Source: a virus
Taxonomy: Duplodnaviria > Heunggongvirae > Uroviricota > Caudoviricetes
Virus record (IMG/VR): IMGVR_UViG_2737471845_000007
Coordinates: 1-11,589 of that record
Reading direction: 5' to 3' (one strand)
Length of the DNA: 11,589 nucleotides
Part shown: positions 1,967-11,589 of the stretch, one piece after another
How the letters are laid out: every line of letters starts with the position of its first letter
Numbering within the stretch: position 1 is the first letter of the stretch
Made by a program: the position numbers and the translations under genes
Notes under the pieces: generated by a model
Databases searched by the model: none
What the model saw: the letters and a program-made list of their open reading frames with translations, nothing else
Told to the model about the DNA's origin: nothing

Positions 1967-1987
1967 GGTCGTTAATGATTTTACCCA

Positions 1988-2013
1988 CCCGCCGCTGGCG
2001 GGTTTTTTATTTT
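1988..2013 (+). terminator. Intrinsic-terminator-like hairpin (CCCGCC-gct-GGCGGG followed by TTTTTTaTTTT) upstream of the major tail gene
   Basis: Read directly: 6-bp GC stem 1988-1993 / 1997-2002, 3-nt loop, T-tract 2003-2013. It sits inside a co-directional operon, so it is probably a partial terminator or RNA 3'-end stabiliser. Confidence 0.55.
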
Positions 2014-2025
2014 CAGGAGACGAGT

Positions 2026-2730
2026 ATGTCCTCTAATTTTGAGCGTTCGCAACTGACGAAAATTATGATTTCGTCTGCACCGGTAACAGCAGAAACCCTG
2101 GATTCTGCCAGCTTTCTTGGGCTGAGCTGTACAATCAAAGAAGTGCAGTTTACCGCTGGACAAAAGCAGGATATTGATGTCACTACGCTGTGTTCTGTTG
2201 AGCAGGAAAATATTAACGGTCTTGGGGCTGCTTCAGAGATTTCCATGTCAGGAAACTTTTATCTCAACGCTGCCCAGAACGCGTTGCGCAGTGCCTATGA
2301 CAATGACACCACGTATGGCTTTAAAGTTATTTTTCCGTCAGGCAACGGATTTACCTTTATGGCAGAGGTGCGTCAGCATACCTGGTCTGCAGGAACCAAT
2401 GGTGTTGTGGCTGCAACGTTTTCCCTGCGTCTGAAAGGTAAACCTGTGCTGACGACAGAGCCGCTGAAAGTGAAGGTCGATTTAAACAGCACGCTGCAGG
2501 TTTCTGCCGGAGCGAAACTCGAAATGGTGGTTGAGGCTGCGGGTGGTGTGCCGCCTTATTCTTATGCCTGGAAAAAAGGTGGTTCTCCTGTTTCCGGACA
2601 GACAGCGGCAACGTTCAGCAAGGCATCAGCAGTATCCGGTGATGCGGGTGCGTATACCTGCGAGATTTCTGATTCTGCAAGCCCGGTTAACAAGGTGACC
2701 TCCACTTCCTGCACTGTAACCGTCAGTTAA
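2026..2730 (+). CDS. Major tail (tube) protein with a C-terminal Ig-like domain
   Basis: ATG 2026 has GGAG (2016-2019) at 6-nt spacing; the listed 1975 start would run through the terminator hairpin. 234 aa. It sits between the tail terminator and the G/GT chaperones. The C-terminal ~85 aa are Ser/Thr/Val-rich beta-type sequence with an Ig-like 'DAGAYTC' motif, comparable in arrangement to the lambda gpV C-terminal domain. Confidence 0.85.
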   Translation: MSSNFERSQLTKIMISSAPVTAETLDSASFLGLSCTIKEVQFTAGQKQDIDVTTLCSVEQENINGLGAASEISMSGNFYLNAAQNALRSAYDNDTTYGFKVIFPSGNGFTFMAEVRQHTWSAGTNGVVAATFSLRLKGKPVLTTEPLKVKVDLNSTLQVSAGAKLEMVVEAAGGVPPYSYAWKKGGSPVSGQTAATFSKASAVSGDAGAYTCEISDSASPVNKVTSTSCTVTVS

Positions 2731-2744
2731 TGAGGATGGGTGTG

Positions 2745-3116
2745 ATGACTAAAAATATCCGTAATCTGGCACTGGCAACGATGTCGGGGTTTCGCCATAA
2801 AACCGTTGATGTGCCTGAATGGGAAGGGGCAACGGTTGTGTTACGGGAACCTTCTGCAGAAGCCTGGTTGCGCTGGCAGGAGATCGTTAAAGCCAGGGAA
2901 GATGATACATCGCCATCTGTTGCAGAGCGTGCCCGCCGAAATCTGGAGGCGGACGTTGAACTGTTCATTGATGTTCTGTGTGATACCGGGCTGCAACCCG
3001 TATTTTCAGAGGGTGATCGTGAACAGGTGATTGCCGTGTATGGTCCGGTGCATGCGCGGCTTCTTCGGCAGTCTCTGGAACTGATCAGTGATGCCGGCGA
3101 GGTTAAAAAAAAGTAG
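2745..3116 (+). CDS. G: Tail assembly chaperone (lambda gpG analogue)
   Basis: Position between the major tail and tape measure genes; ends ..GEVKKK* on a slippery A-run. Start ATG 2745 is preferred (AGGA 2733-2736, 8-nt spacer); in-frame alternatives are ATG 2730 (overlapping the upstream TAA) and ATG 2736. Confidence 0.8.
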   Translation: MTKNIRNLALATMSGFRHKTVDVPEWEGATVVLREPSAEAWLRWQEIVKAREDDTSPSVAERARRNLEADVELFIDVLCDTGLQPVFSEGDREQVIAVYGPVHARLLRQSLELISDAGEVKKK

Positions 3117-3418
3117 CGCTTCCGGGGATGCGTTTTCTGATGATGCTGGCGCTCAGGATGGGGCGCACATTGTCAGAGTTACGTCGGGAAATGTCCGCAT
3201 CAGAAATCATGATGTGGGCAGAATTTGACAGGTTCAGCCCGCTGGGTGACGAGCGGGCTGATATCCGGGCTGCCCAGATTGTTTCAGCTGTTTACGGTGC
3301 GCAGGGGGTCAAAGTACCACTGAATGATGCGCTTCTTCAGTGGGAACAAGAGCAGACAGAAGGCGTCTCAGATCCATTTGCCGGACTGGAAAACGCGCTT
3401 TTAATAGTCTCTCAGTGA
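2745..3418 (+). CDS. GT: Tail assembly chaperone G-T fusion made by programmed -1 ribosomal frameshift at 3107-3113
   Basis: The downstream ORF (listed 3128..3418) is in the -1 frame relative to G and has no RBS of its own. The -1 frame opens exactly at the heptamer (TAA at 3104-3106 in that frame). Predicted junction ..GEVKKK/VALPGMRFLMM.. . Matches the conserved G/GT arrangement of long-tailed phages. Confidence 0.75.
3107..3113 (+). promoter_or_regulatory. -1 programmed ribosomal frameshift slippery heptamer A AAA AAG
   Basis: Read directly: A-run 3105-3112 then G 3113; zero-frame codons AAA(3108-3110) AAG(3111-3113) then TAG. It is the same heptamer class as the E. coli dnaX shift site. 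Confidence 0.8.
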
Positions 3419-3427
3419 GTCAACATA

Positions 3428-3447
3428 ACCGCTTCGGCGGTTTTTTT
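3428..3447 (+). terminator. Short terminator-like hairpin (aCCGC-ttcg-GCGGt followed by T7) upstream of the tape measure gene
   Basis: Read directly: 4-5 bp GC stem with a TTCG loop (3429-3440), then TTTTTTT 3441-3447. The stem is short, so it is probably weak. Confidence 0.45.
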
Positions 3448-3457
3448 CGTCCGGAGA

Positions 3458-6400
3458 ATGAGTGTGGCGACATTACGTGAACTGATTATTAAAATCTCGG
3501 CAAACTCCCGGTCATTCCAGTCAGAGATCTCCCGGGCTTCGCGTATGGGGCAGGATTACTACCGTACCATGCAGAACGGGGGCCGGCAGTCCGCTGCTGC
3601 ATCCCGTGAAATGCGGCGTGCACTGGCAGAAGTGACGGATCAGATAAATACAGCTAAATCTTCGGCACTGAATATGGCGGGGGCATTTGCCGGGGCTTTT
3701 GCTACCGGTCATCTTATTTCTCTCGCCGATGAGTGGAATTCGGTAAATGCCCGTCTGAAGCAGGCCTCACAGTCCAGTGATGATTTTCAGGCATCACAGC
3801 GTGAATTAATGGCGATCAGCCAGAGAACGGGGACGGCGTTTTCTGATAACGCCAGCCTTTTTGCCCGTTCTGCAGCTTCCATGCGGGAGTATGGTTACAG
3901 TTCTGAGGAGGTACTGAAAGTCACCGAGGCGATCTCCACGGGCCTGAAATTATCCGGTGCCAGTGCAGCAGAAGCCAGTTCGGTGATCACGCAGTTCAGT
4001 CAGGCACTGGCGCAGGGAGTGCTGCGCGGTGAAGAGTTTAACTCGGTGAATGAGAACGGCGATCGTGTTATTCGTGCGCTGGCTGCGGGAATGGGGGTTG
4101 CCCGTAAGGATCTGAAGGCCATGGCGGATAACGGAAAGTTGACCGCCGATAAGGTTGTTCCTGCACTGATTAGTCAGCTTGGGGCATTACGTGATGAATA
4201 TGCGGCAATGCCTGATACGGTTTCATCCTCTGCAACCAAAGTTGAAAACGCCTTTATGGCCTGGGTTGGTGGTGCGAACGAGGCAAGCGGAGTGACGAAG
4301 ACGCTCTCCGGTGTGCTGAATGGTATTGCAGGCAATATTGACACTGTGGCAACCGCTGCCGGTGCTCTGGTTGCCGTCGGGGTAGCCCGATATTTTGGCA
4401 ATATGGCGTCGTCTGCTGGATCTGCAACTGCCGGATTAATTACTGCAGCCAGAAACGAAGTGGCTCTTGCGGAAGCGCAACTTCGGGGGACACAGATAGC
4501 AACCGCCAGGGCGCGTGCGGCGGTTTATCGTGCGCAACAGGCGGTTGTTGCTGCTCGCGGTACTGAAAGGCAGGCAGCCGCAGAAGCGAAGCTGACAGCT
4601 GCCCAGGCGTCACTTACCCGTAATATTGCGGCCAGAACAGCGGCACAGACAACGCTGAATAATGTTACGTCAGTGGGGAGTCGTTTATTAAGTGGCGCAC
4701 TGGGGCTGGTTGGTGGTGTGCCGGGACTCGTCATGCTGGGGGCTGCGGCCTGGTACACGATGTATCAGAATCAGGAGCAGGCCAGAGAATCTGCACGCCA
4801 GTATGCCGCAACAATCGACGAAATTCGCCAGAAAACGTCGGCAATGTCGCTTCCTGAAGCGTCAGATAATGAGGAAAAGACGCGGCAGGCACTGGAGGAA
4901 CAAAATCGCCTGATTAGCGAACAGGAAGGAAAAATTCGCGGACTGAAAAATCAAATTGCTGATTATCAACGTTGGCTTGATGAAAGTTCGCAGAGTGGTT
5001 CGGGTGCTGAAATCATCCTTAAAGGGCTTGCCGAAGCAACAAATCAACTGGCAGTTGAACAATCCCGTCTCACTCAAATGCAGGGCAAAGCGCAATCCAT
5101 TCAGGATGTGCTTGCCAGGCTGGAGGAGCGACGGGTGGCGTTGATCCGTCAACAGGCAGCGGAACAAAACAAAGCGTATCAGTCCCTGTTGATCATGAAT
5201 GGGCAGCATACCGAGTTTAATCGCCTTCTCGGGCTTGGTAATGAATTACTTCAGCAGCGACAGGGGCTGGTGAATGTACCGTTACGGCTACCACAGGCAA
5301 CCCTGGATGATAAACAGCAGACCGCACTGAATAACAGCAAGCGCGAACTGGCTCTGTCCCGCCTGAAGGGGGAAGCGCGTGAGCGTGCCCGACTGGGCTA
5401 TGCTGCGGATGATCTCGGCTTTGTGGGAGAGGCGTATCAGACAGCCAGACAGAATTATATCAATAACTCACTGGATGCCTGGCGAAATAACCAGGCAAAT
5501 AAACCGCATAAAAAAACCGAAGCGGAAAAAACAGAGGATATTTATAAACGGCTGATTAAACAGCAAAAAGAACAGATAGCACTGGCAGGGCAGAATACTG
5601 AACTGGCTAAGATGAAATATCAGGTCAGTCAGGGCGAATTATCAACCCTGTCAGAAGCGCAGAAAAAAACGCTTTTGCAGAATGCAGCACTCATCGACCA
5701 GAAAAAGATTCGTGAGCAGCTTGCTGCGTATGAGAGCAGTCTGGCGGACAGTAATGCCAGTGCCCGGGCATCTGACGAAGCGCAGTTGCTGGGATATGGT
5801 GAAGGCTCACGGATGCGTGAACGACTCCAGGAAATGTGGAGTATCCGGCAGACGTTTGAGCAGAAAAATAACGAGCTGCTGAGACAGTATCAGGCCGGAG
5901 AAATTGAAGAAGCCCTGTGGAAACAGGAGAAAGAACTGAATAAAAAATATCTGGAAGAGCGTCTCAGCGATCAGCAGAATTATTATGCAAAGGCCGATGC
6001 TTTACGTAATAACTGGAATGCCGGACTCCAGGAGGGACTGACCAACTGGGCAGACAGTGCCACCGATTATGCTTCACAGGCGGCAGATGCTGTCGTTTCC
6101 ACGATGGACGGGCTGGTATCAAATATTTCCGATGCACTGGCCGGGAATGTTGTGGACTGGAGGAACTGGGGGAGTTCAGTTCTCCGGGAAGTTTCAAAAA
6201 TTCTGATGAATGCAGCCATTGTTAACGGACTGAAATCACTCTCCGGTGCCGGAGGGTGGCTTGGTACGGTCGGCGGATGGATTTCGGGGGCAGTGGCAAA
6301 CGCAAAAGGTGGTGTTTACACATCGGCAAATCTGAGTGCTTACAGTAACACTATTGTGGATACCCCGACGTATTTTGCTTTTGCGAAAGGTGCCGGGTTG

Positions 6401-6658
6401 ATGGGCGAGGCCGGGCCTGAAGCAATCATGCCACTGACACGGGCAGCGGACGGCTCTCTTGGGGTCAGGGCCATTGGAAATGTGAATGGTGGCGGTGGAT
6501 TTGTTTATTCTCCCGTGTATCACATCAGCATTCAGAATCAAGGGAGCAATGGCGAGATAGATGCGCGCTCAGCCAGGGGACTGGTGGATCTGATCGACAG
6601 CAGGGTTGTGTCAATTATGCAGTCATCGCGTCGGGATGGAGGATTGTACAGTGCCTGA
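3458..6658 (+). CDS. H: Tail tape measure protein (lambda gpH-like C-terminal region)
   Basis: 1066-aa ORF in the canonical position after G/GT. It has an Ala/Gln/Arg-rich coiled-coil-type middle, a hydrophobic Gly-rich segment (GALGLVGGVPGLVMLGAAAW) and a C-terminus (..RDGGLYSA) resembling lambda gpH as I recall it. ATG 3458 is only 1 nt after GGAG; GTG 3464 has better spacing and is an alternative start. Confidence 0.92.
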   Translation: MSVATLRELIIKISANSRSFQSEISRASRMGQDYYRTMQNGGRQSAAASREMRRALAEVTDQINTAKSSALNMAGAFAGAFATGHLISLADEWNSVNARLKQASQSSDDFQASQRELMAISQRTGTAFSDNASLFARSAASMREYGYSSEEVLKVTEAISTGLKLSGASAAEASSVITQFSQALAQGVLRGEEFNSVNENGDRVIRALAAGMGVARKDLKAMADNGKLTADKVVPALISQLGALRDEYAAMPDTVSSSATKVENAFMAWVGGANEASGVTKTLSGVLNGIAGNIDTVATAAGALVAVGVARYFGNMASSAGSATAGLITAARNEVALAEAQLRGTQIATARARAAVYRAQQAVVAARGTERQAAAEAKLTAAQASLTRNIAARTAAQTTLNNVTSVGSRLLSGALGLVGGVPGLVMLGAAAWYTMYQNQEQARESARQYAATIDEIRQKTSAMSLPEASDNEEKTRQALEEQNRLISEQEGKIRGLKNQIADYQRWLDESSQSGSGAEIILKGLAEATNQLAVEQSRLTQMQGKAQSIQDVLARLEERRVALIRQQAAEQNKAYQSLLIMNGQHTEFNRLLGLGNELLQQRQGLVNVPLRLPQATLDDKQQTALNNSKRELALSRLKGEARERARLGYAADDLGFVGEAYQTARQNYINNSLDAWRNNQANKPHKKTEAEKTEDIYKRLIKQQKEQIALAGQNTELAKMKYQVSQGELSTLSEAQKKTLLQNAALIDQKKIREQLAAYESSLADSNASARASDEAQLLGYGEGSRMRERLQEMWSIRQTFEQKNNELLRQYQAGEIEEALWKQEKELNKKYLEERLSDQQNYYAKADALRNNWNAGLQEGLTNWADSATDYASQAADAVVSTMDGLVSNISDALAGNVVDWRNWGSSVLREVSKILMNAAIVNGLKSLSGAGGWLGTVGGWISGAVANAKGGVYTSANLSAYSNTIVDTPTYFAFAKGAGLMGEAGPEAIMPLTRAADGSLGVRAIGNVNGGGGFVYSPVYHISIQNQGSNGEIDARSARGLVDLIDSRVVSIMQSSRRDGGLYSA

Positions 6659-9043: not shown

Positions 9044-11589
9044 ATGGGTAAAGGCAGCAGTAAGGGGCATACTCCGCGCGAAGCGAAGGACAACCTGAAG
9101 TCCACGCAGTTGCTGAGTGTTATCGATGCCATCAGCGAAGGGCCGATTGAAGGTCCGGTGGATGGATTAAAAAGCGTGCTGCTGAACAGTACGCCGGTGC
9201 TGGACAGTGAGGGGAATACCAATATCTCCGGTGTCACGGTGGTGTTCCGGGCCGGTGAGCAGGAGCAGACACCGCCGGAGGGTTTTGAATCCTCCGGTTC
9301 CGAGACGGTGCTGGGTACGGAAGTGAAATATGACACGCCGATCACCCGGACCATCACGTCGGCAAACATTGACCGTCTGCGCTTTACCTTCGGTGTGCAG
9401 GCACTGGTGGAAACCACCTCAAAGGGTGACCGGAATCCGTCAGAAGTCCGCCTGCTGGTTCAGATACAACGTAACGGTGGCTGGGTGACGGAAAAAGACA
9501 TCACCATTAAGGGCAAAACCACGTCGCAGTATATGGCCTCGGTGGTGGTGGATAACCTGCCGCCGCGCCCGTTTAATATCCGGATGCGCAGGATGACGCC
9601 GGACAGCACCACAGACCAGCTGCAGAACAAAACGCTCTGGTCGTCATACACCGAAATCATCGATGTGAAACAGTGCTACCCGAACACGGCACTGGTCGGC
9701 GTGCAGGTGGACTCGGAGCAGTTCGGCAGCCAGCAGGTGAGCCGTAATTATCACCTTCGCGGACGCATTCTGCAGGTGCCGTCGAACTATAACCCGCAGA
9801 CGCGGCAATACAGCGGTATCTGGGACGGAACGTTTAAGCCTGCGTACAGCGACAACATGGCCTGGTGTCTGTGGGATATGCTGACCCATCCACGCTACGG
9901 CATGGGGAAACGTCTTGGTGCGGCAGATGTGGATAAATGGGCGCTGTATGTCATCGGCCAGTACTGCGACCAGTCGGTGCCGGACGGCTTTGGTGGCACG
10001 GAGCCGCGCATCACCTGTAATGCGTACCTGACCACACAGCGCAAGGCGTGGGATGTGCTCAGTGATTTCTGCTCGGCGATGCGCTGTATGCCGGTATGGA
10101 ACGGGCAGACGCTGACGTTCGTGCAGGACCGACCGTCGGATAAGGTGTGGACCTATAACCGCAGTAATGTGGTGATGCCGGATGATGGTGCGCCGTTCCG
10201 CTACAGCTTCAGCGCCCTGAAGGACCGCCATAATGCCGTTGAGGTGAACTGGATTGACCCGAATAACGGCTGGGAGACGGCGACAGAGCTTGTGGAGGAC
10301 ACGCAGGCCATTGCCCGTTACGGTCGTAACGTCACGAAGATGGATGCTTTTGGCTGTACCAGCCGGGGGCAGGCACACCGCGCCGGGCTGTGGCTGATTA
10401 AAACAGAACTGCTGGAAACGCAGACCGTGGACTTCAGCGTGGGTGCCGAAGGGCTTCGCCATGTACCGGGCGATGTCATTGAAATCTGCGATGATGACTA
10501 TGCCGGTATCCGCACCGGCGGGCGCGTGCTGGCGGTAAACAGCCAGACCCGGACGCTGACGCTCGACCGTGAAATCACGCTGCCATCTTCCGGCACCACG
10601 CTGATAAGCCTGGTTGACGGGCAGGGGAGTCCGGTCAGCGTGGAGGTTCAGTCCGTCACCGACGGCGTGAAGGTGAAAGTGAGCCGTGTTCCTGACGGCG
10701 TTGCTGAATACAGCGTATGGGGGCTGAAGTTGCCGACGTTGCGTCAGCGCCTGTTCCGCTGTGTGAGTATCCGTGAGAACGATGACGGCACGTATGCCAT
10801 CACTGCCGTGCAGCATGTACCGGAAAAAGAAGCCATCGTGGATAACGGGGCGCACTTTGACGGCGACCAGAGCGGCACGGTGAATGGTGTCACGCCGCCA
10901 GCGGTGCAGCACCTGACCGCAGAAGTCACTGCAGACAGCGGGGAATATCAGGTGCTGGCGCGATGGGACACACCGAAGGTGGTGAAGGGCGTGAGCTTCC
11001 TGCTCCGTCTGACCGTAACAGCGGACGACGGCAGTGAGCGGCTGGTCAGCACGGCCCGGACGACGGAAACCACATATCGATTCACGCAACTGGCGCTGGG
11101 GAACTACAGTCTGACAGTCCGGGCGGTAAATGCGTGGGGACAGCAGGGTGACCCGGCGTCGGTATCGTTCCGGATTGCCGCACCGGCAGCGCCGTCTCGG
11201 ATTGAGCTGACACCGGGCTATTTTCAGATAACCGCCACGCCGCATCTTGCGGTTTATGATCCGACGGTACAATTTGAGTTCTGGTTCTCGGAAACGCGGA
11301 TTACCGATATCAGGCAGGTTGAAACCACAGCCCGCTACCTTGGCACGGGGCTGTACTGGATAGCCGCCAGTATCAATATCAAACCGGGCCATGATTATTA
11401 TTTTTACGTTCGCAGTGTGAACACCGTTGGCAAATCGGCATTCGTGGAGGCTGTCGGTCGGGCGAGCGATGATGCGGAAGGTTACCTGGATTTTTTCAAA
11501 GGAGAAATCGGGAAAACACATCTGGCCCAGGAGCTGTGGACGCAGATTGATAACGGTCAGCTTGCGCCGGACCTGGCTGAAATCAGGAC
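9044..11589 (+). CDS. J: Tail tip / central tail fibre protein J (host specificity protein); N-terminal ~848 aa only, 3' end beyond the window
   Basis: ATG 9044 with an SD upstream; frame 2 is open to the window end, which is why no complete ORF is listed. The translation [54 protein letters not shown].. matches lambda gpJ as I recall it. The C-terminal receptor-binding part is not in the window. Confidence 0.95.

Follow-up and report, generated by a model that had tools for sequence, protein, structure and literature searches.

A probable programmed -1 frameshift between the tail assembly chaperone genes G and T of an Escherichia coli prophage

Genes of the tail module and anatomy of the G/T junction

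The window, i.e., the whole stretch of 11,589 nucleotides analyzed here (IMG/VR record IMGVR_UViG_2737471845_000007), is an intact tail module of a siphophage with an HK97-like head and a lambda-like tail. Capsid, connector, head-completion, gp10-like, and tail-completion genes lie upstream of the region studied in this work, and homologues of M, L, K, I, and J follow the tape measure gene. The last of these, gene J, is on the plus strand and runs off the end of the window. A minus-strand ORF of 625 residues (9644-11521), antisense within gene J and without a Pfam match, was regarded as spurious. The central part of the module has the order major tail gene, chaperone gene, ORF in the -1 frame, and tape measure gene, and the same order is found in annotated relatives (Table 1).

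Table 1. Features of the tail module and of the G/T junction (coordinates of the window)
Feature	Position	Strand	Remarks
Major tail tube protein gene (V-like), C-terminal Ig-like domain	1975..2730	+	Upstream neighbour of the chaperone gene
Tail assembly chaperone gene G, HK97 gp13 type, 123 aa	2745..3116	+	Pfam PF06222 Phage_TAC_1
TAA in the -1 frame	3104..3106	+	Closes the -1 frame upstream of the heptamer; direct reading, six-frame translation
A8 homopolymer	3105..3112	+	Followed by G at 3113; direct reading
Slippery heptamer A_AAA_AAG, proposed -1 shift site	3107..3113	+	Direct reading; A_AAG core kept in relatives
T segment, -1 frame, 101 codons, VALPGMRFLMMLALRMGRTL...SQ	3113..3418	+	Stop TGA 3416-3418; Pfam PF06223
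TAG stop of G, 'shifty stop' context	3114..3116	+	Directly 3' of the heptamer
Only conserved in-frame ATG of the T frame (Met T+10)	3140..3142	+	RefSeq start of the stand-alone 'tail assembly protein T'
GC hairpin GCGCUC-N6-GGGCGC inside T	3149..3166	+	About 35 nt 3' of the heptamer; folds
Intrinsic-terminator-like hairpin and T-run	3427..3447	+	Between T and the tape measure gene
Tape measure protein gene	3464..6658	+	Pfam matches; downstream neighbour

The assignment of these genes to families relies on Pfam and on annotated phages. The matches of the major tail gene are individually weak, with Ig_2 (1e-06) passing its cut-off and both Phage_TTP_11 (1e-04) and Phage_tail_2 (6e-04) falling below theirs; in phages Evi and HK106, its counterpart bears the annotation major tail protein or major tail subunit. 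The product of G matches PF06222 (Phage_TAC_1) with an E-value of 3.4e-57 and 192 bits (cut-off 25). Its start is more likely to be ATG 2745 than ATG 2730, because there is a GAGGA 8 nt upstream, because this codon is where the match to Pfam starts (residue 6 when counting from 2730), and because annotators chose the equivalent of 2745 in RefSeq and in phage Evi. With this start, G has 123 residues, and the fusion GT, made of positions 2745-3113 and of the T segment, has 224. The ORF in the -1 frame matches PF06223, Phage_tail_T (Minor tail protein T), with 3.8e-19 and 69 bits (cut-off 25.9). The tape measure gene, which probably starts at GTG 3464 as in RefSeq, matches Phage_HK97_TLTM (3e-83), TMP_3 (3e-58), and Tape_meas_lam_C (2e-13). 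HK106 and HK544 have terminators annotated just upstream of their tape measure genes, but they carry a small additional gene (a homologue of gp15) between T and the terminator.

Direct reading of the end of G gives the codons GGC GAG GTT AAA AAA AAG TAG, that is, GEVKKK*. The chaperone does end, as the original prediction had it, on a run of eight A followed by G, which is the longest homopolymer of the window, and the heptamer A_AAA_AAG stands in X_XXY_YYZ phase relative to the frame of G. The six-frame translation confirmed that the -1 frame opens exactly at this heptamer and stays open up to the stop of T, as well as the existence of a 96-codon ORF in that frame (ATG 3128 to 3418). The frame of G and the open frame of T overlap by only 7 nt; a -1 shift joining them must therefore fall inside the heptamer. 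Translation of the shifted frame predicts the junction ..GEVKKK-VALPGMRFLMM.., in agreement with the ..KKK/VALPGM.. junction proposed initially. The Glu-C peptide spanning this predicted junction would be VKKKVALPGMRFLMMLALRMGRTLSE.

The number of AAAAAAG heptamers in the window is unremarkable: there are 3 for 1.56 expected, and 37 of 200 shuffles reach that number. Hence, what makes the one at the end of G significant is that it is in phase, sits where G meets T, and is conserved in relatives. Another heptamer, at 2572, lies within the major tail gene but reads AAA_AAA_G, out of phase, and was set aside.

Related junctions and known frameshift systems

We gathered 126 related loci from GTDB genomes and IMG/VR by alignment of chaperone homologues, and added annotated phage loci. 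The comparison included 128 loci and provided 94 distinct junction sequences with T in the -1 frame, whose chaperones are 41-100% identical to that of the window. According to the titles of the records, they come from Escherichia, Enterobacter, Kosakonia, Serratia, Pectobacterium, Brenneria, Symbiopectobacterium, Leclercia, Klebsiella, Morganella, Proteus, Providencia, Pantoea, Erwinia, Yersinia, Orbus, and Zophobihabitans. The loci where T is not in the -1 frame are indel variants (A7, A9G) or broken loci. When the junctions are aligned on the invariant C-terminal lysine of G, A_AAG is present in 93 of the 94 and A_AAA in the remaining one. The context of this core varies. A_AAA_AAG may be directly followed by TAG or TAA, as in the window and many other loci, or by 4-8 more codons; other junctions have G_GAA_AAG and five more codons (the HK97 type), or GCA_AAG and then TAA. 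In most junction types the stop codon comes directly after the slip codon, and the run of A ranges from 3 to 9. Judging from these alignments, the conserved feature is the phase and the tRNA-Lys slip core rather than the homopolymer.

The 77 close relatives in which the tract was counted consist of 72 with A8G, 3 with A7G, and 2 with A9. One locus (L044) has A9G, with G and T fused in one frame. The A8 run is also a possible site of length variation at the DNA level. Three database proteins in which G and T are fused (P0001-P0003) were considered as natural hard-wired fusions and discounted, because their junctions (KKV, or a stretch in the wrong frame followed by a return) resemble homopolymer indels or assembly errors.

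The peptide encoded in the -1 frame is conserved from its first residues after the slip site (V-x-x-P-G/x-x-x-F-L-M-x-L-A-L-R-x-G-R-T-L). Between the slip site and ATG 3140, the codon positions 1, 2, and 3 have entropies of 0, 0.22, and 1.92 at the proline (CCN) and of 0, 0, and 0.96 at the phenylalanine (TTY). The amino acids Pro, Phe, and Leu are kept in this interval and the third positions vary, and such synonymous variation suggests that translation of the -1 frame begins ahead of any conserved start codon.

The closest known systems include those of the HK97 gp13/gp14 type. G is 64% identical to the chaperone of HK75, HK106, and HK544. In HK106 and HK544 the homologous pair is recorded as a CDS joined from two pieces, labelled 'programmed frameshift' in HK544, and the relatives given in the notes of both records are HK97 gp14 and the HK97 tail assembly chaperone. 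These phages share with the window the succession of Phage_TAC_1 in the 0-frame product and Phage_tail_T in the -1 product, as well as the place of the pair between the major tail subunit and the tape measure genes. However, their site (CGG_GAA_AAG_TCT) is non-canonical, with a run of four A and five more codons of G, whereas that of the window is a canonical A_AAA_AAG on A8 with the stop directly after it.

A second type is closer to the window at the site itself. Antonov et al. 2013 (PMC3711429) grouped 41 frameshift genes with similarity to HK97 into a 'Phage_TAC' cluster. Of the two cassettes that they assayed in E. coli, one with A_AAA_AAG_TAG gave 7% of frameshifting and the other, from a second member of the family, 6%. 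The first of these encodes the ADAESARKK* C-terminus of P0026, a protein that is 66% identical to G of the window. In Sharma et al. 2014 (PMC4066793), the cluster A_AAA_AAG_25, represented by ECs1801 with products of 124 and 226 aa, is a proven case, and Table S4 of that work marks the ECs1801-type heptamer cluster '[true]'. The ECs1801 type, found in E. coli O157 Sakai and Stx prophages, resembles the window in having A_AAA_AAG_TAG at the end of the chaperone and similar products (124 aa and about 226 aa, versus 123 and 224 aa). It differs in the end of the chaperone (..ESARKK* versus ..GEVKKK*), in the length of the run of A (6 versus 8 nt), and in the residues of the -1 linker.

The lambda G/GT pair has a homologous T domain (Phage_tail_T), the same gene order (V-G-T-H), and, as proposed for the window, a low-level -1 shift on a ..A_AAG slip with tRNA-Lys, with a fixed G:GT ratio needed for tail assembly. 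Its slip site, G_GGA_AAG, differs from the A_AAA_AAG of the window and is located several codons before the stop of G instead of abutting it. The G domain of lambda belongs to another Pfam family, Phage_TAC_2, whereas G of the window matched only Phage_TAC_1. The review of Atkins et al. 2016 reports for lambda a G:GT ratio of about 30:1, with both proteins binding the tape measure protein, the T domain recruiting the major tail protein, and neither G nor GT present in the virion. Finally, dnaX of E. coli, which encodes gamma and tau, has the identical heptamer and the same slippage mechanism on tRNA-Lys (mnm5s2UUU). There, an upstream SD-like element and a downstream hairpin bring the shift to about 50%, whereas neither stimulator is conserved at the site of the window; besides, the frameshift product of dnaX is the shorter of the two, and that predicted for the window the longer.

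Proposed mechanism, stimulatory elements, and competing explanations

The junction is very probably a G/GT programmed -1 ribosomal frameshift site in the HK97/lambda-like siphophage tail module of an E. coli prophage. Two overlapping ORFs are flanked by the genes for the major tail protein and the tape measure; the second of them, T, is read in the -1 frame, and the overlap holds a slippery sequence in phase with G. The interpretation proposed originally is supported by this gene order, the pair of Pfam families, the conserved A_AAG core, the coding constraint in the -1 frame, the joined CDSs already recorded for HK106 and HK544, and the homologue tested at 7%. The frameshift that produces G and GT is reportedly a conserved trait of the tail assembly chaperones of long-tailed phages. 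E. coli has a single tRNA-Lys (mnm5s2UUU), which pairs weakly with AAG, and for this reason ..A_AAG is said to be the most slippery A-site context. Slippage of ribosomal tRNA-Lys on A_AAA_AAG is the best-supported mechanism.

Under this mechanism, most ribosomes would stop at the TAG and release the 123-aa chaperone, and a few per cent of them would slip back by 1 nt on the heptamer. The slip may occur in two ways: the P- and A-site tRNA-Lys could re-pair together from AAA/AAG to AAA/AAA, or the P-site tRNA-Lys could slip on A_AAG with TAG waiting in the A site. Translation would then resume with GTA GCG CTT in the -1 frame and end at the stop of T, yielding a GT protein of 224 aa that contains ..GEVKKK-VALPGMRF... 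Considering the rate of the tested homologue, this exact allele would be expected to shift at a similarly low level. The roles of the proteins are presumably those known in lambda: by this analogy, the tape measure protein would be coated by many copies of G and a few of GT, the latter would recruit the major tail protein through its T domain, and G and GT would both be absent from the virion.

It had been suggested that a stem-loop in 3114-3180 might stimulate the shift. This segment does fold in the sequence of the window (-27.7 kcal/mol, z = -2.6), yet the structure is badly spaced and not conserved: its first hairpin begins 1 nt past the heptamer and the second 21 nt past it. In relatives, the minimum free energy structure of the window is not kept, with 60.6% of cells paired and a covariation no better than in slid controls, and RNAalifold predicted no consensus structure (0 pairs) for 31 diverse junctions between slip-24 and slip+93. 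Shuffled sequences fold as well as the 37 nt that directly follow the heptamer (z = +0.35). On the other side of the site, the 10 nt upstream of the heptamer have no conservation across junctions. An SD-like GAGG (3099-3102) was rejected as a stimulator: only 4 nt separate it from the heptamer, and both the 87%-identical relatives (AAGTTATT) and most others lack it. The elements of dnaX/IS-type sites, i.e., a conserved hairpin or pseudoknot 5-9 nt downstream and an SD-like element 10-14 nt upstream, were not found. The Rfam scan of 2900-3500 gave no match to a frameshift element, and only a chance-level one to rsmX (E = 0.43). The ECs1801 cluster is similar in this respect, as it has no SD and its predicted hairpin is no more stable than the background (ddG 0.020 +/- 0.023; Sharma et al. 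2014, PMC4066793). The lack of a conserved stimulator agrees with a rate that is low and unstimulated, in the order of a few per cent, like that of lambda and the tested homologues.

A GC hairpin within T (3149-3166) has 81% of its cells paired across relatives and no covariation. Synonymous variation is locally reduced there, with third-position entropies of 0.68, 1.35, and 1.21 in this hairpin, versus about 1.5-2.0 at most other conserved four-fold sites. One could imagine from this that the A8G tract is a recoding site acting at two levels, with slippage of RNA polymerase and of the ribosome jointly setting the G:GT ratio and the hairpin acting as a non-classical modulator. The hairpin might then tune the shift from an unusual distance, or mask ATG 3140 and ATG 3143 against the production of free T. 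We consider this reading unlikely.

The fusion could also arise mainly at the level of transcription, if RNA polymerase added one A on the A8 run and produced an A9 mRNA with G and T in one frame. Mass spectrometry of the junction cannot separate this from ribosomal slippage, because both yield KKK-VALPG. The composition of the tract gives the idea some appeal: no homopolymer of the window is longer, its length varies in relatives at the DNA level (A7, A8, A9), database proteins match A6 and A7 versions, and two loci (L121 and L122) have nine A and then TAG. The dnaX gene of T. thermophilus has A9 where that of E. coli has the ribosomal A_AAA_AAG. According to Baranov 2005, many bacteria show selection against runs of A/T from about 9 nt, A8 seems to be used by some IS elements, and the A8 run of human apoB slips at about 10%; the A8 of the window is at the lower limit discussed in that work. 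However, relatives with runs of 3-4 A (G_GAA_AAG, GCA_AAG) keep the -1 architecture and the A_AAG core, which fits slippage of tRNA-Lys and does not fit slippage of the polymerase, and the tested homologous cassette reaches its 7% with a run of six A. Furthermore, the terminal G of A_AAA_AAG, which is of importance to the ribosomal mechanism but not to slippage of the polymerase, is present in 72 of the 77 close relatives, with 3 A7G and only 2 changes from G to A. Programmed transcriptional realignment, for which we used T. thermophilus dnaX, IS elements, and Shigella mxiE as examples, is characterized by a run of 9 or more A/T (8 or more in some organisms) that is conserved in its length and not in its codon phase. 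Across the related junctions we observed the opposite pattern, with a run of 3-9 A and a conserved phase and A_AAG core. Polymerase slippage on A8 is possible as a minor contributor, and quite unlikely as the main source of the fusion.

The overlap and the heptamer would be incidental if T were a separate protein, started at ATG 3128 or ATG 3140 through initiation or through reinitiation after the termination of G. These codons are only 12 and 24 nt past the TAG, and stand-alone T genes are annotated in RefSeq and in phage records. The original prediction had named ATG 3128 as the possible start, but this codon is an ATG in just 11 of 29 gapless diverse relatives and encodes Val, Ile, or Thr in the other 18; the conserved Met is that of ATG 3140, present in 29/29. 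Neither codon has an SD at a usable distance, since a GGGG abuts ATG 3128 and a GGGGA is 12 nt before ATG 3140. The -1 frame is under constraint as a protein already ahead of ATG 3140, where Pro, Phe, and Leu are kept and synonymous sites vary, and the slip core is invariant across related junctions. The lambda precedent points the same way, as free T is reportedly not made in that phage. Some gene pairs can combine coupling with frameshifting (Antonov et al. 2013), but the Phage_TAC cassettes of the same study made the fusion product and are not among the clusters listed with coupling. These observations make an independent T very improbable as the explanation of the junction, although the conserved ATG 3140 leaves room for some T initiated on its own.

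Occurrence in E. coli and annotation in public records

The source element is an E. coli prophage. The G-T region is present in 901 of 5,426 complete genomes, and this exact junction occurs in about 16% of complete E. coli genomes. Of the 899 complete E. coli genomes with the slip site, 853 have at least 99% identity over the 101 nt that surround it. The region is also 95-96% identical to that of phages Evi, phi467, and the vB_Eco series.

The biology adds nothing new to the G/GT paradigm. In line with the original prediction, which had described the mechanism as well known, it is a textbook one, known since HK97 and lambda, already annotated in this family (HK106 and HK544) and measured in a close homologue. 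The situation is different for the annotation of this allele: in the RefSeq records that we inspected and in the closest phages (Evi, phi467, and the vB_Eco series), G and T are given as two separate genes, and the E. coli prophage allele is mis-annotated in these public records. Marking G and GT would correct the protein catalogue of a very common prophage. The records also differ in the details of T, whose start is placed at ATG 3128 or at ATG 3140 depending on the annotator, and whose name is either 'tail assembly protein T' or 'DUF4035'.

Slip-site sequence among related loci

The slip site takes several forms among the related G-T loci compared. The HK97-type relatives carry CGG_GAA_AAG at this position, and another group has GCA_AAG followed by TAA, neither of which is a canonical X_XXY_YYZ heptamer. 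Because the A_AAG tetramer is the only slip-site element common to the whole family, the comparison of sequences suggests that the ancestral core was slippage of a single tRNA-Lys.

The A-run differs in length, at the DNA level, between otherwise near-identical relatives. In three IMG/VR contigs it is shortened to A7G, and G, read in the +1 frame, is longer by about 37 residues, an extension with the same sequence as the database protein P0006, which stands for a cluster of 54 sequences; in these contigs a -1 shift can no longer reach T. The A9G run of a Symbiopectobacterium endolongispinus contig places G and T in one ORF, and a version with A6 is represented by the database protein P0001. 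Such length variants might reflect errors in homopolymer sequencing, prophage decay or genuine slippage mutations. Two further IMG/VR relatives, 76% identical, have A9 directly followed by TAG rather than A8G. Theirs is the only junction type without an AAG codon among the related junctions compared, and of all the types it is the likeliest to undergo transcriptional slippage.

Positions and sequences of the features in the window and in related loci
Feature	Record	Position	Sequence or context
A-run	Window	3105-3112	A8G
HK97-type slip site	L129 (HK106)	1860-1890	CGG_GAA_AAG
HK97-type slip site	L003, L004, L123-L128		CGG_GAA_AAG
Slip site of the other group	L016, L017, L028, L029, L032, L034, L035		GCA_AAG, then TAA
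Shortened A-run	L049, L096, L102	about 3340-3350	A7G
Lengthened A-run	L044	about 3340-3350	A9G
A-run ending in a stop	L121, L122	about 3360-3372	A_AAA_AAA_TAG
Short hairpin	Window; aligned position in relatives	3149-3166	GCGCUC-N6-GGGCGC, within the Ala-Leu-Arg-x-Gly-Arg codons of T
Terminator-like hairpin	Window	3427-3447	AACCGC-TTCG-GCGGTT + T7, between T stop and tape measure start
Annotated T	Window	3128-3418
Annotated T	L002	6441-6719
Annotated T	L131	1847-2174
Second AAAAAAG	Window	2572-2578	Major tail gene, shortly before the Ig-like domain
625-codon ORF	Window	9644-11521 (- strand)	Antisense to tail tip gene J

Hairpins within and downstream of T

Third-position entropy at the short hairpin inside T is 0.68 for GCG (27/31), 1.35 for CTC (21/31), a rare Leu codon, and 1.21 for GGG (23/31). 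The other conserved four-fold sites mostly lie at about 1.5-2.0, though G has a few low ones as well (0.90, 1.13). Of the cells scored for pairing, 81% form. No covariation was seen among the aligned relatives, and the 'GKT' variants lack the hairpin. Lying about 35 nt 3' of the slip site, it is too distant to act as a classical stimulator, and might instead mask the internal ATG at 3140/3143.

The second hairpin resembles an intrinsic terminator and stands in the middle of the late tail operon. HK106 and HK544 likewise have a terminator annotated immediately before the tape measure gene, but there the terminator is preceded by a small extra gene (a gp15 homologue) that the window lacks.

Annotation of T and other reading frames in the window

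Public records annotate T inconsistently. Phage Evi has T starting at ATG 3128. RefSeq starts it at ATG 3140 and calls the product 'phage tail assembly protein T' in some entries and 'DUF4035 domain-containing protein' in others, and in vB_EcoM-606R7 two small CDSs take up the region. The frameshift is annotated in none of these records.

The second AAAAAAG of the window reads AAA_AAA_G, the wrong phase for a tandem -1 slip, and no alternative-frame ORF of note was seen there. A long ORF also runs antisense to the tail tip gene; it appears spurious. Its translation gave no Pfam match, and thousands of E. coli genomes have gpJ annotated there on the + strand.
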